Source: an uncultured Methanosarcinales archaeon
GTDB lineage: Archaea; Nanobdellota; Nanobdellia; Woesearchaeales; GW2011-AR4
NCBI GenBank assembly: GCA_964359525.1
Contig: CAYHTH010000001.1
Span: 1 to 28,109 of the forward strand
Direction: 5' to 3'
Length of the DNA stretch: 28,109 nucleotides
Shown here: piece by piece, positions 2,997 through 25,378 of the stretch
How positions within the stretch are numbered: position 1 is the first letter of the stretch
Layout of the letters: the number at the start of each line of letters is the position of its first letter
Program-made: the position numbers and the translations under genes
The notes under the pieces: model-generated
Told to the model about the DNA's origin: nothing
The model's input: only the letters and a program-made list of their open reading frames with translations
The model's database searches: none

Positions 2997-3250
2997 TGGT
3001 GGCAAACACGCATTTTCTTGGTGAAAATGCTATTCGCAAAACAAAAATCAGAACTTCGTAACTGATTTTTGTTCTGCACTCAATTTGCCACCACGAAATC
3101 CTAACAACGTGGATGAAAACTGAGTGCAGAGGATTTTTCCTTACGAAGTCGGGAAAAATCCTTTGCGAATAGGGTTTTGACAGACAAAACCCGTGTTTGA
3201 ATCCAATACTGTTGGAATTTATTTTGAATTCAAAAATACAATCAAAACAT
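2997..3250. ncRNA. Highly structured intergenic element, candidate ncRNA or ssDNA-folding mobile element of unassigned family
   Basis: Perfect complementary pairs: 3003-3010/3192-3199, 3011-3017/3023-3029, 3030-3040/3162-3172, 3041-3051/3062-3072, 3073-3082/3121-3130, 3131-3140/3152-3161, 3173-3179/3185-3191; loop-loop 3053-3061/3141-3149; pseudoknot 2997-3006/3084-3093. The structure is certain; its nature is not. Confidence 0.6.
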
Positions 3251-5508: not shown

Positions 5509-5591
5509 GGAAATGGTAATGTTTTACTCATTTATATAATTTTGGTTTCCATATAGAAAATAAATGGATAAAACACCCAAATGACGAATAG

Positions 5592-5685
5592 ATAGAGAAA
5601 GACAAAAGCATTGATTCAAATTGTTTTGTCTTTCTAATCTTAGTAGCTGAATATTATAATCAATTACTTTTGTCAGCTACTAAGA
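5592..5685. repeat. Tandem-hairpin element, copy 1
   Basis: AGAAAGACAAAA 5596-5607 / TTTTGTCTTTCT 5624-5635 (12 bp, 16-nt loop), then TCTTAGTAGCTGA 5638-5650 / TCAGCTACTAAGA 5673-5685 (13 bp, 22-nt loop); starts with ATAG. Confidence 0.85.
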
Positions 5686-9691: not shown

Positions 9692-9786
9692 AAATAAATT
9701 TATAGTGGCAGAAGTAAATAATTAATAGATTATTTGTATCCGGCATTATAACAAAGTTTTTATTCTCCGATTCCGCTTATTTATTT

Positions 9787-13653: not shown

Positions 13654-14601
13654 ATGGAAAGCAGATTAATGGCGGAAACTATAATGCAGGATGAGCAGAA
13701 GCTTATAGACTTGGTTCTGGAACTAAAAAAACAGAGAAATGCAGTAATTCTCGTCCATAACTATCAAAGGCCAGAAATGTTCAAAATTGCCGATTATATG
13801 GGAGACTCTCTCGGATTGTCTGTCGCAGCTGCAAAAACCGAAGCCGATGTAATTCTTTTTTGCGGCGTTAAATTCATGGCTGAAACTGCAAAAGTTCTCA
13901 GCCCGGGCAAAATAGTTTTACTGCCGAATCTTGATGCAGGATGCTCGCTCGCAGATATGGCAACTGTTGAAAAATTAAAAGAAGTAAAAAAGCAGTATCC
14001 GGATGCTGCCGTTGTAAGTTATGTCAATACAACTGCAGAGGTAAAGGCAATTTCAGACATTTGCTGCACTTCTGCCAATGCAGTTGAAGTTGTAAATTCA
14101 CTGCCAAACAAACGAGTTATATTCCTTCCGGACAAGAATCTCGGAAGATACGTGCAGGAGCACACCGATAAAGAAATAATTTTATGGGACGGCTATTGTT
14201 TTGTGCACGACAATCTTGATGCAAACACTTTGATAGAATTCAAGCAGAGATACCCTGACGCTAAAATAATCGCGCATCCTGAATGCAAAGATGAATTATT
14301 AAAATTATCAGATCACATCTGCGGCACAGGAGGCATGGCTAAGTTTGCAAAATCCGACGGCTCCAAGAATTTTATTGTAGTAACAGAATGCGGCATGACC
14401 GATAAATTAAGGCAGGACGTTCCTGAAAAAAATTTCCTTTCCTTCTGCAATGTATGCCCGTACATGAAATCTACAACTCTTCCATTAGTTGCCAGGGCAC
14501 TGATTACAAACCAAAATGAGATAACTCTGCCAGAAAATATAATAAGAGGCGCGCGAAAAGCAATAGACAGGATGCTGGCAGTTTCGAAAAATGCTGCCTA
14601 G
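13654..14601 (+). CDS. nadA: Quinolinate synthase
   Basis: VHNYQ, CGVKFMAE, AGCSLA, CCTSANA, GYCFVH, HPEC, CPYMK. ATG 13654 lies ~25 nt after GATATATAAA; 13669 or 13684 are alternatives. Confidence 0.96.
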   Translation: MESRLMAETIMQDEQKLIDLVLELKKQRNAVILVHNYQRPEMFKIADYMGDSLGLSVAAAKTEADVILFCGVKFMAETAKVLSPGKIVLLPNLDAGCSLADMATVEKLKEVKKQYPDAAVVSYVNTTAEVKAISDICCTSANAVEVVNSLPNKRVIFLPDKNLGRYVQEHTDKEIILWDGYCFVHDNLDANTLIEFKQRYPDAKIIAHPECKDELLKLSDHICGTGGMAKFAKSDGSKNFIVVTECGMTDKLRQDVPEKNFLSFCNVCPYMKSTTLPLVARALITNQNEITLPENIIRGARKAIDRMLAVSKNAA

Positions 14602-15607
14602 AGATATAGCCGACCAACAAAATCAGTTGACCAATAGTGTTGGCCGGCTAGATAGCGAATCACAGCAAATTCATTCAATTAATTCTGCGATTCGCTATAA
14701 GCTGGTTCTTGAATTCTGGGACAGACATAAGGAATTAAGTATAAAAAATAAAGATTATAGAGAATTTGTTAATAGTCTAATTAGAATCCTACTTAAACAA
14801 GATATCAATAAAGGAGATGCAACAACAAATTCATTAATAAAAAGCAAGAATATTAGCGCAGTAGTTGTTGCAAAAGAAGACGGAATATTGGCTGGCTTGG
14901 AAGAATTTTCTTTGATTAACAAAGATTTAAAATTAAAATTTTTTAAGAAAGATGGGGGTAAAATAAAAGAAGGAGAAATATTGCTGGAAATAAACGGAGA
15001 TTCCGGAAAGATTCTTGAAAGAGAAAGGGTTTTATTAAATTTGCTGCAAAGAATGAGCGGCATTTCAACATTAGTTTCAAAACTAAATAAAGAATTAAAA
15101 AATAAAATAAAATTGGCTGCAACCAGAAAAACTTTATGGGGTTTGCTTGATAAAAAAGCAGTCAGCATCGGCGGTGGATTGACGCACAGGCTAAATTTAA
15201 ATGACAGAATTATAATAAAAGAAAATCATCTAAAAATTCTTGGCAATAATATAGGAAATGTAATTAATTCAGTTAAATTCAAATCAAAATATATTGAAAT
15301 TGAAGTCGAGGATAAAAAACAAGCTTTTACAGCGGCAAAAGCAATAACAAAAATCATGGAAAATAAAAAACTCAGAAACAATCAAATTTTTGCTATGATG
15401 TTTGATAAAATTCCACCGGAAGAAATTAAATCAATAATTAATAAGTTTAAAAATGAAAGAATATATGATAAAATTTTATTTGAAGCATCTGGAAATATAA
15501 ATGAGAATAATCTAACAAATTACATAGATTGCGGAGTGGATATTATTTCCATGGGCTCGATGACAAACTCTGCAAAAATACTGAATATGTCGCTTGAAAT
15601 CGGATGA
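14591..15607 (+). CDS. nadC: Nicotinate-nucleotide pyrophosphorylase (quinolinate phosphoribosyltransferase) with extended N-terminus
   Basis: GDATT, ERVLLNLLQRMSGIST, ATRKT, HRLNLND, IKENH, EVE, EASGNI, SMGSMT. Confidence 0.93.
   Translation: MLPRDIADQQNQLTNSVGRLDSESQQIHSINSAIRYKLVLEFWDRHKELSIKNKDYREFVNSLIRILLKQDINKGDATTNSLIKSKNISAVVVAKEDGILAGLEEFSLINKDLKLKFFKKDGGKIKEGEILLEINGDSGKILERERVLLNLLQRMSGISTLVSKLNKELKNKIKLAATRKTLWGLLDKKAVSIGGGLTHRLNLNDRIIIKENHLKILGNNIGNVINSVKFKSKYIEIEVEDKKQAFTAAKAITKIMENKKLRNNQIFAMMFDKIPPEEIKSIINKFKNERIYDKILFEASGNINENNLTNYIDCGVDIISMGSMTNSAKILNMSLEIG
14606..14698. repeat. Tandem-hairpin element, copy in the nadC 5' region
   Basis: TAGCCGACCAACA 14607-14619 / TGTTGGCCGGCTA 14638-14650 (13 bp, one A-C, 18-nt loop); ATAGCGAATCACAG 14652-14665 / CTGCGATTCGCTAT 14685-14698 (14 bp, one A-C, 19-nt loop); 93 nt; starts with ATAG. 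Confidence 0.85.
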
Positions 15608-24986: not shown

Positions 24987-25139
24987 ATGGAAGAGCAAAA
25001 AGAAGAGCCTGACGAGTATAACGACAAGGTAAAAGACGAAGACAAGGATGACTTGGAAGACAAAGACGAGGATGAAGACTACAAGGATGATGACAAGGAC
25101 AAAGACGAGGATGAAGAAGACGAGGGCGATGAGGAATAG
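24987..25139 (+). CDS. Small, extremely acidic protein (50 aa; absent from the ORF track)
   Basis: Hand translation MEEQKEEPDEYNDKVKDEDKDDLEDKDEDEDYKDDDKDKDEDEEDEGDEE*; ATG 24987, TAG 25137-25139; TATA-like TTATTTAAA at 24947-24955. Confidence 0.7.
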   Translation: MEEQKEEPDEYNDKVKDEDKDDLEDKDEDEDYKDDDKDKDEDEEDEGDEE

Positions 25140-25226
25140 AGAATTTTGAAAAATTATCAAATTGTCAAAATTCTCTAAGAGAACTTTGAATGAAATTTAA
25201 AAAATAATGAATAATTCAAAGTTCTC
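25136..25226. repeat. Tandem-hairpin element, copy after the acidic ORF
   Basis: TAGAGAATTTTGA 25137-25149 / TCAAAATTCTCTA 25165-25177 (13 bp, 15-nt loop); GAGAACTTTGAAT 25179-25191 / ATTCAAAGTTCTC 25214-25226 (13 bp, 22-nt loop); starts with ATAG. Confidence 0.85.
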
Positions 25227-25265
25227 AATAAGCAATTAATTTCAAATTTTTTCTAAATGGCATAA

Positions 25266-25341
25266 CGCAAATTCGCCGAGAATTTGCGGGATTGAAAATT
25301 ATCGGACTAAAGTCCAAGGTATTATACCGACAATTTTCAAT
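25266..25341. repeat. Two further adjacent hairpins
   Basis: CGCAAATTC 25266-25274 / GAATTTGCG 25280-25288; ATTGAAAATTATCGG 25291-25305 / CCGACAATTTTCAAT 25327-25341 (15 bp, one A-C, 21-nt loop). Confidence 0.75.
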
Positions 25342-25378
25342 AATAAGCTTTAAAAACAGGTTATGATTTTTGCTTCTT

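Follow-up and report, generated by a model that had tools for sequence, protein, structure and literature searches.

Two-hairpin elements in a Woesearchaeota genome: probable miniature transposons flanked by short A/T-rich duplications

Three loci in the 28,109-nt stretch of DNA analyzed here (the window) each carry two abutting hairpins, and the question is what kind of sequence these paired hairpins represent. An earlier note on this stretch had described them as conserved in shape but not in sequence, and had proposed either a dispersed element family resembling bacterial REPs or a structured RNA motif. As detailed below, loci 1 to 3 are very probably MITEs (non-autonomous DNA transposons) of about 88-90 bp, members of an abundant superfamily of this Woesearchaeota genus.

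Architecture of the paired hairpins

Locus 1 (5592-5685) is composed of stems of 12 and 13 bp with loops of 16 and 22 nt. In locus 2 (14606-14698), the stems have 13 and 14 bp, with one A.C mismatch per stem, and the loops 18 and 19 nt, while locus 3 (25136-25226) combines two stems of 13 bp with loops of 15 and 22 nt. All three loci start with ATAG, the first unit ends with CTAA or CTAG, and both loop words common to two loci, TCAAATTG and TCAATTA, were verified in the sequence. Thus, the stem and loop sizes, starts, unit ends and loop words given by the earlier note were all borne out. Folded as single-stranded DNA, loci 1, 2 and 3 reached z-scores of -6.8, -6.0 and -7.1, respectively, and none of the 200 dinucleotide shuffles made for each locus folded as well. 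The mismatches of locus 2, at 14616/14642 and 14662/14688 (+ strand), would become G.U pairs in an RNA of the minus strand, possibly by chance.

The statement that the stems are otherwise unrelated had to be abandoned, since loci 1 and 3 have in common the terminus TAGAGAA and the end of the first loop (TCAAATTG), and since every locus belongs to a sequence-conserved multi-copy family. The inner stems of loci 1 and 3 differ, yet each is perfectly complementary. Judged from the sequences, this difference appears to be either compensation between families or a module swap.

The coordinates of the elements and of the duplications flanking them are given in Table 1. The fourth two-hairpin element of the window, which like the decayed hairpin was overlooked by the earlier note, was assigned to family G and has a first stem of 9 bp (CGCAAATTC) with a loop of 5 nt and a second stem of about 15 pairs (ATTGAAAATTATCGG) with a loop of 21 nt. 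Its fold z-score was -5.4, and dispersed matches with 85-95% identity were found in the genus. The decayed solo hairpin of family E/F matched the family E representative over 32 nt with 91% identity. Separate from the two-hairpin family, a strongly structured intergenic region was observed at 2997-3250, with hairpins of 11-12 bp at 3040-3073 and 3130-3162; contig C58 carries a hairpin similar to those of this region.

Table 1. Positions of the elements, their hairpin arms and the flanking duplications in the window.
Feature	Position	Strand	Remarks
Element 1	5593..5682	+	90 nt; termini TAGAG...CTACTA
Element 1, arms of short-loop hairpin	5596-5607 and 5624-5635		
Element 1, arms of long-loop hairpin	5638-5650 and 5673-5685		
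Element 1, left duplication copy	5590..5592		AGA, 3 bp
Element 1, right duplication copy	5683..5685		AGA, 3 bp; also extends the second stem
Element 2	14607..14696	+	90 nt; hairpins 14607-14651 and 14652-14698; in nadC
Element 2, left duplication copy	14604..14606		ATA, 3 bp
Element 2, right duplication copy	14697..14699		ATA, 3 bp
Element 3	25139..25226	+	88 nt; family A; all four arms AGAGAAYTTTGA-like; termini GAGAAT...GTTCTC
Element 3, left duplication copy	25135..25138		AATA, 4 bp
Element 3, right duplication copy	25227..25230		AATA, 4 bp
Fourth two-hairpin element, family G	25266..25346 (ends approximate)	+	40 nt downstream of locus 3
Decayed solo long-loop hairpin, family E/F	9700..9751	-	between two + strand ORFs

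The assembly containing the window, a MAG of a Woesearchaeota archaeon (Woesearchaeales, DPANN) from groundwater (1.085 Mb, 197 contigs, 37% G+C), was scanned for hairpins of 11 or more pairs with no more than 1 mismatch and loops of 3-30 nt. Two hairpins were regarded as paired when they were at most 6 nt apart, and five block-wise dinucleotide shuffles of the genome served as the null. Single hairpins numbered 208 compared with 114-140 in the five shuffles, and abutting pairs numbered 22 compared with none. Eighteen of the 22 pairs spanned 86-92 nt, and pairs of this length were built from one short-loop hairpin (loop of 11-18 nt) and one long-loop hairpin (loop of 19-24 nt). Therefore, on account of the counts and of the uniform build, the architecture is real and lies far above chance, and the comparison with composition-matched shuffles that had been called for came out in favor of the elements. 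Twenty pairs are situated in short intergenic spacers, with both orientations to the flanking ORFs represented, and one of the 22 lies within a gene. In samples of 400 kb, four tandem pairs were found in genome G047 of the genus and none in an outgroup genome of the order.

Insertion polymorphism, target duplications and sequence families

The loci were compared with 43 species genomes of the same GTDB genus. Locus 1 is absent from G007, in which the flanks are 99-100% identical, and from G052, and the empty site holds a single AGA. Locus 2 is absent from G007 (flanks 91% identical), G020, G009, G002 and G021. In these relatives, the empty site reads ...CCTAGAGA-N-AAGCT... (GAGA-N-AAGC), with ATA in G009, and the filled site reads GAG-ATA-[90 nt]-ATA-AGC. 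Locus 3 and the adjoining family G element are both absent from G051 and G052, and the empty site of G051 (GAGG-AATA-AAGTG) contains AATA once. Differences were also found in sequencing runs. A Logan contig from groundwater run X4 joins position 25139 to 25340, without locus 3 and without the family G element, while other contigs of this run carry loci 1 and 2 unchanged; a Logan contig of run X6 skips locus 1. Thus, the search of relatives for filled and empty sites, which had been proposed beforehand, yielded empty sites at all three loci. Loci 1 to 3 are DNA insertions that are present or absent among sister genomes and among populations of the same aquifer.

Family A, to which locus 3 belongs, has 13 copies in this genome, nine of them intact and four interrupted. 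No fewer than 19 further genomes of the genus carry family A, which was also detected, with 88-92% identity, in one more family-level lineage of this order. Its distribution is otherwise patchy, with only 5 positives among 200 other genomes sampled. Locus 1 has no second copy in this genome, and its family is represented by at least 18 copies (79-96% identity) at other loci in 14 sister genomes. Locus 2 is likewise single-copy; within G047, a relative of this element is nested in copies of family A. The same two-hairpin build was found in families B, E, F and G. The element proper comprises 88-89 nt in family A, from GAGAAT to GTTCTC, and 90 nt in the family of locus 1, from TAGAG to CTACTA. 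The middle bases of family A are TAA or TTA regardless of the sequence of the duplication. The outer arms form inverted repeats, i.e., GAGAATTTTGAA versus GAGAACTTTGAA in family A (12 of 13 positions) and TAG plus GACAAAAG at each end in the family of locus 1; they are weaker in locus 2 (about 7 of 13 positions). Hence, a dispersed element family, as suspected earlier, was confirmed by its multiple copies, its spread over the genomes of the genus and its filled/empty polymorphism. The phrase "conserved in shape, not sequence" applies between families; within a family it does not, the arms being the most conserved part.

Copies were found inserted within the loops of other copies. Other arrangements included chimeras, in which a short-loop hairpin of family E is joined to a long-loop hairpin of family F, single-hairpin derivatives with the first arm fused to the last arm, and one copy with an inverted second loop. 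Five identical copies in G047 and five in G048 indicate recent bursts in some genomes. At C4:20354-20444, this genome has a perfect two-hairpin copy of family A, whereas in G007, G051 and G052 only one hairpin is found, which is degenerate and contains a hybrid arm. This difference reflects either the loss of a hairpin via direct-arm recombination or the replacement of an old relic. A mini element of 47 nt with two small hairpins was observed in a family E loop (C20:6994-7040 and C192:489-535), with no duplication visible; many related mini hairpins of the type GAAAAYC...GRTTTTC are clustered on contigs C150 and C20.

Target-site duplications were analyzed with 59 further family A copies from 18 genomes (60 stretches, one of which was ended by the contig), giving a total of 68 copies from about 20 genomes. 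The flanking 4-mers were identical in 62 of the 68 copies (TATA in 53, AATA in three, TATT in three, TAAA in two and TACG in one). Among the 15 pairs other than TATA/TATA, nine were identical compared with 0.45 expected when the right flanks were permuted (p < 1e-4), and none of 10,000 permutations gave nine identical pairs. Since the 4-mers on the two sides co-vary, a simple 2-bp duplication of TA is ruled out. On contig C3, the comparison of a family A copy with three empty relatives gave an exact fit to a duplication of 4 bp. Thus, family A integrates with a 4-bp stagger and strongly prefers TATA.

In the family of locus 1, identical flanking 3-mers (AAA, ATA or AAT) were found in 11 of 13 other copies in addition to AGA in the window, and in family B they were found in four of four copies. 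Duplication of 3 bp at AWA targets characterizes family B as well as the families to which loci 1 and 2 belong. In two older orthologous comparisons, one of a family A copy common to G013 and G045 and the other of an E/F copy in G007, TA was found instead of the predicted TATA. As the length of the duplication varies by family, either more than one enzyme or one enzyme with a flexible stagger would be involved.

With regard to the stems, positions in family A were unchanged in 49-58 of 58 distinct copies, and loop positions varied in up to half of them. Covariation in this family was not significant (10 compensated cells versus 4.7 in shuffles, with a maximum of 11). In the family of locus 1, the arms were 94% conserved and the remainder 83%, and five compensated pair changes were observed compared with 0.57 expected, a value that none of 2000 shuffles reached. 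Thus, the earlier idea that stems are kept paired through compensatory change gained support from the family of locus 1, with family A remaining below significance. The conservation of the arms, the compensation in the family of locus 1 and the differing but paired stems of loci 1 and 3 together indicate that both arm sequence and pairing are selected for propagation. Conservation is equally high in the inner and the outer arms, which exceeds what the ordinary MITE model requires, in which the outer repeats alone matter.

Strong folds and compensated stem changes would also be expected of structured small RNA genes or cis-acting motifs (terminators, stabilizers or leaders), in which RNA pairing would be selected and mobility would be secondary. 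The position of the elements beside gene ends and starts fits such RNAs, as does the finding that both mismatches of locus 2 are G.U on a minus-strand RNA. However, a scan of the whole window with Rfam 15 gave no match at the gathering score or at E <= 1, and the elements occur in either orientation relative to the flanking ORFs. Moreover, the arm sequence itself is conserved within families, with few compensations in family A, and insertion polymorphism, duplications and nesting are traits of DNA. The runs holding the locus were all DNA, with no RNA data set among them. The RNA motif suggested by the earlier note is thus highly improbable.

Conserved arms might, furthermore, be explained by a regulator whose operators consist of two palindromic binding sites, formed by the four AGAGAAYTTTGA arms, at the promoters of a regulon. 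The four half-sites of family A are indeed nearly identical and lie near TATA boxes and gene starts. This explanation is scarcely credible, since other families show the same build with wholly different arms, the orthologous promoters of sister species are without sites, copies occur after stop codons, within nadC and within one another, and duplications flank the copies. The elements are, hence, best discussed as MITEs. They are non-coding, have a length of 88-90 nt made up almost entirely of stem and loop, and possess fixed-length duplications, inverted-repeat ends and dispersed copies with filled/empty polymorphism.

Relation to known systems and search for a parent transposase

Correia/NEMIS elements of Neisseria, RUP of Streptococcus pneumoniae and SM1 of Sulfolobus solfataricus are MITEs that duplicate short A/T targets. 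Each of them forms one long hairpin from both of its ends, a parent IS of the IS630 family has been identified, and the duplication is TA. The elements described here resemble them in being small (~80-150 bp), non-coding, multi-copy, intergenic and capable of hairpin formation, and in having inverted-repeat ends, short A/T-rich duplications and presence or absence among strains. They differ in their two abutting hairpins and in their duplications of 3 or 4 bp. Since the two hairpins are separate, the pairing partner of each end is an inner copy of the same end. Rickettsia palindromic elements (RPE) have a length of 100-150 bp and are often found within genes. Locus 2 is comparable to RPE as a palindromic mobile element in frame within a protein-coding gene (nadC), but 20 of the 22 pairs here are intergenic and one is genic. 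The novelty lies in the unusual two-hairpin build and in the TATA or AWA targets, the MITE class itself being already known. In the literature searched, no paper linking MITEs to Woesearchaeota or DPANN was found.

The elements resemble REP, BIME and REPIN sequences, the first of which were named by the earlier note, in being short dispersed palindromes with a foot motif (GTAG in REP, TAG here) and in having a paired and modular organization with several sequence families under one architecture (PMC2817692). In the elements, TAG starts most stems; in family A, its TA belongs to the duplicated target. In a REP-like or REPIN-like system, a RAYT or an IS200/IS605-type HUH (Y1) nuclease would cut single-stranded DNA beside (A)TAG. 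Hairpins with a conserved TAG foot and one shape shared by families of different sequence would suit such an enzyme, a Y1_Tnp gene is present in this genome and in 23 of the 43 genomes of the genus, the 47-nt mini two-hairpin insert lacks a duplication, and G008 has an IS200-like element in the spacer of locus 1.

However, REPs are GC-rich imperfect palindromes of 20-40 nt without target duplication, and enzymes of the IS200/IS605 type insert without duplicating their target (PMC2817692). The elements have AT-rich and perfect stems, long loops and duplications of 3-4 bp that co-vary with the site, and these duplications speak against a mechanism of the REP/RAYT (HUH) kind. A RAYT gene is always bordered by its REPs (PMC2817692). 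The search for a Y1 HUH/RAYT gene that had been suggested revealed a single Y1_Tnp gene in this genome (C7:1826-2269), which is not bordered by the elements. It is flanked by small unrelated hairpins instead, and the nearest two-hairpin element lies 2 kb away, beyond another gene. Representatives of the elements had no BLAST match in 30 Y1 loci, the G008 IS200 element ends in GC-rich hairpins that have TAAA as the loop and AGTACCT after them, unlike the two-hairpin elements, and a Y1 gene was not seen in 20 of the 43 genomes. Failing on both the duplications and the unflanked Y1 gene, the analogy with REP/RAYT systems is quite improbable as an explanation.

Miniature IS200/IS605 derivatives (PATEs) share one further feature with the elements, namely the direct junction of the left-end and right-end hairpins, in which no gene intervenes. 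Their insertion 3' of a fixed 4-5-mer without duplication has no counterpart here. An IS200/IS605-derived PATE was rejected as a source because the ends of the IS200 elements of G008 and C7 differ from them in sequence and shape. The C7 element itself (C7:1236-2330; L003) consists of an IS200-like tnpA (Y1_Tnp, 147 aa) and the small hairpins at its ends; next to it lies a truncated fragment of a Zn-ribbon transposase that is similar to IS1 or IS6.

The genus contains transposases of the DDE_3 type (11 of 43 genomes), Y1_Tnp (23 of 43), DDE_Tnp_1 (28 of 43) and rve (several genomes); DDE_Tnp_1_2 was found in none of the 43. An autonomous IS with the ends and duplication length of the elements, i.e., a parent such as those of Correia/NEMIS, RUP and SM1, was not found among the approximately 110 genus loci of DDE_3, Y1_Tnp, DDE_Tnp_1 and rve, all of which lacked family-like termini. 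No transposase family was co-distributed with the elements across the genomes of the genus. G047, a genome with a recent burst whose assembly of 8 contigs is 93% complete, yielded no parent, and none of its family A arms lay 0.7-3 kb apart; the arm pattern scan returned miniature, nested or single-hairpin copies only. The parent IS may have been lost from the MAG assemblies as a repeat. Among viral contigs, none contained the exact family A junction.

Several candidate parents were rejected individually. The terminal inverted repeat of an IS630-like element on C189, CTGTCATGTCATG, is unlike any family, and DDE_3 occurs in just 11 of the 43 genomes, which speaks against an IS630/Tc1 parent. Transposases of the IS4/IS5 type (DDE_Tnp_1) and of the rve type are present in the genus, but their termini did not match, and neither was co-distributed with family A. 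The genes between neighboring copies on contig C2 are ordinary dehydrogenase, methyltransferase and TRAM genes. A weak lead to IS630 was obtained for families E and F only, which have TA flanks and a terminus, AGTGTTGGAAGTA, that was compared with the IS630 terminal inverted repeat of G048, AGTGACATAAGTA. The IS630-family element on C189 (L036:176-1376) is flanked by TA, and its transposase is split at an A8 run into orfA (219-695) and orfB (734-1369).

Proposed mechanism and effects on host genes

Each of these MITEs is made up almost entirely of two abutting palindromes, a short-loop hairpin with a stem of 12-13 bp and a loop of 11-18 nt and a long-loop hairpin with a stem of 12-14 bp and a loop of 19-24 nt. 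The outer arms serve as terminal inverted repeats, and a transposase supplied in trans would presumably move the elements by a cut-or-copy-and-paste reaction. Integration takes place at A/T-rich targets through a staggered cut, which gives rise to the short duplication. Because the duplications are short and fixed and the ends are inverted repeats, the candidate enzyme is most likely of the DDE type. The four arms are predicted to be transposase binding sites or to be required to pair as hairpin or cruciform DNA, since all four are constant, the loops drift and changes in the stems are compensated.

A more far-reaching version, which is considered unlikely, regards the two-hairpin build itself as the substrate. 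One unrecognized archaeal enzyme, not annotated as a transposase, would read paired hairpins or cruciforms by shape and would move many unrelated families, integrating at TATA-like sites with a stagger of 3-4 bp. Compensatory evolution would then keep every stem perfect. If true, this would be structure-guided transposition, distinct from both DDE-TIR and HUH systems. The four conserved arms and paired stems provide a concrete handle for tracing the transposase.

DPANN genomes are tiny and thought to be streamlined; nonetheless, genomes of this genus bear dozens of active miniature transposons each. Since TATA, the core of archaeal promoters, is preferred as the target and is regenerated on both sides of the insertion, rewiring of promoters is possible. 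The elements can also alter stop codons and add residues to enzymes such as NadC. Moreover, they offer a simple marker of strain dynamics in aquifer populations, and for annotation, these repeats account for many of the "perfect palindromes" and "operator-like" sites in Woesearchaeota.

Effects on coding sequences were found at loci 2 and 3. Element 2 (90 nt) and its duplication (3 nt) add 93 nt, i.e., 31 codons, in frame after codon 5 of nadC, which was identified by Pfam, as was nadA. With the insert near its start (14591-14700), the gene gains 31 residues without a stop codon, and no later alternative in-frame start codon is present. In relatives without the insert, NadC starts with MLPRD-KLVLE. 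Reading the insert as a BHB intron was rejected because its flanks do not pair (inspected by eye). At locus 3, an ORF for a hyper-acidic protein of 50 residues (24987-25139) ends with a TAG stop codon that is made up of the duplicated TA and the first G of element 3, and in relatives without element 3 the stop codon at this position is TAA. The insertion of locus 1 is located in the promoter spacer between two divergent genes. In G008, this spacer contains an IS200-like element plus an ORF of 206 aa (C1:17400-18790; L084:1390-2790), and the spacer of locus 1 seems to be a hot spot for insertions.
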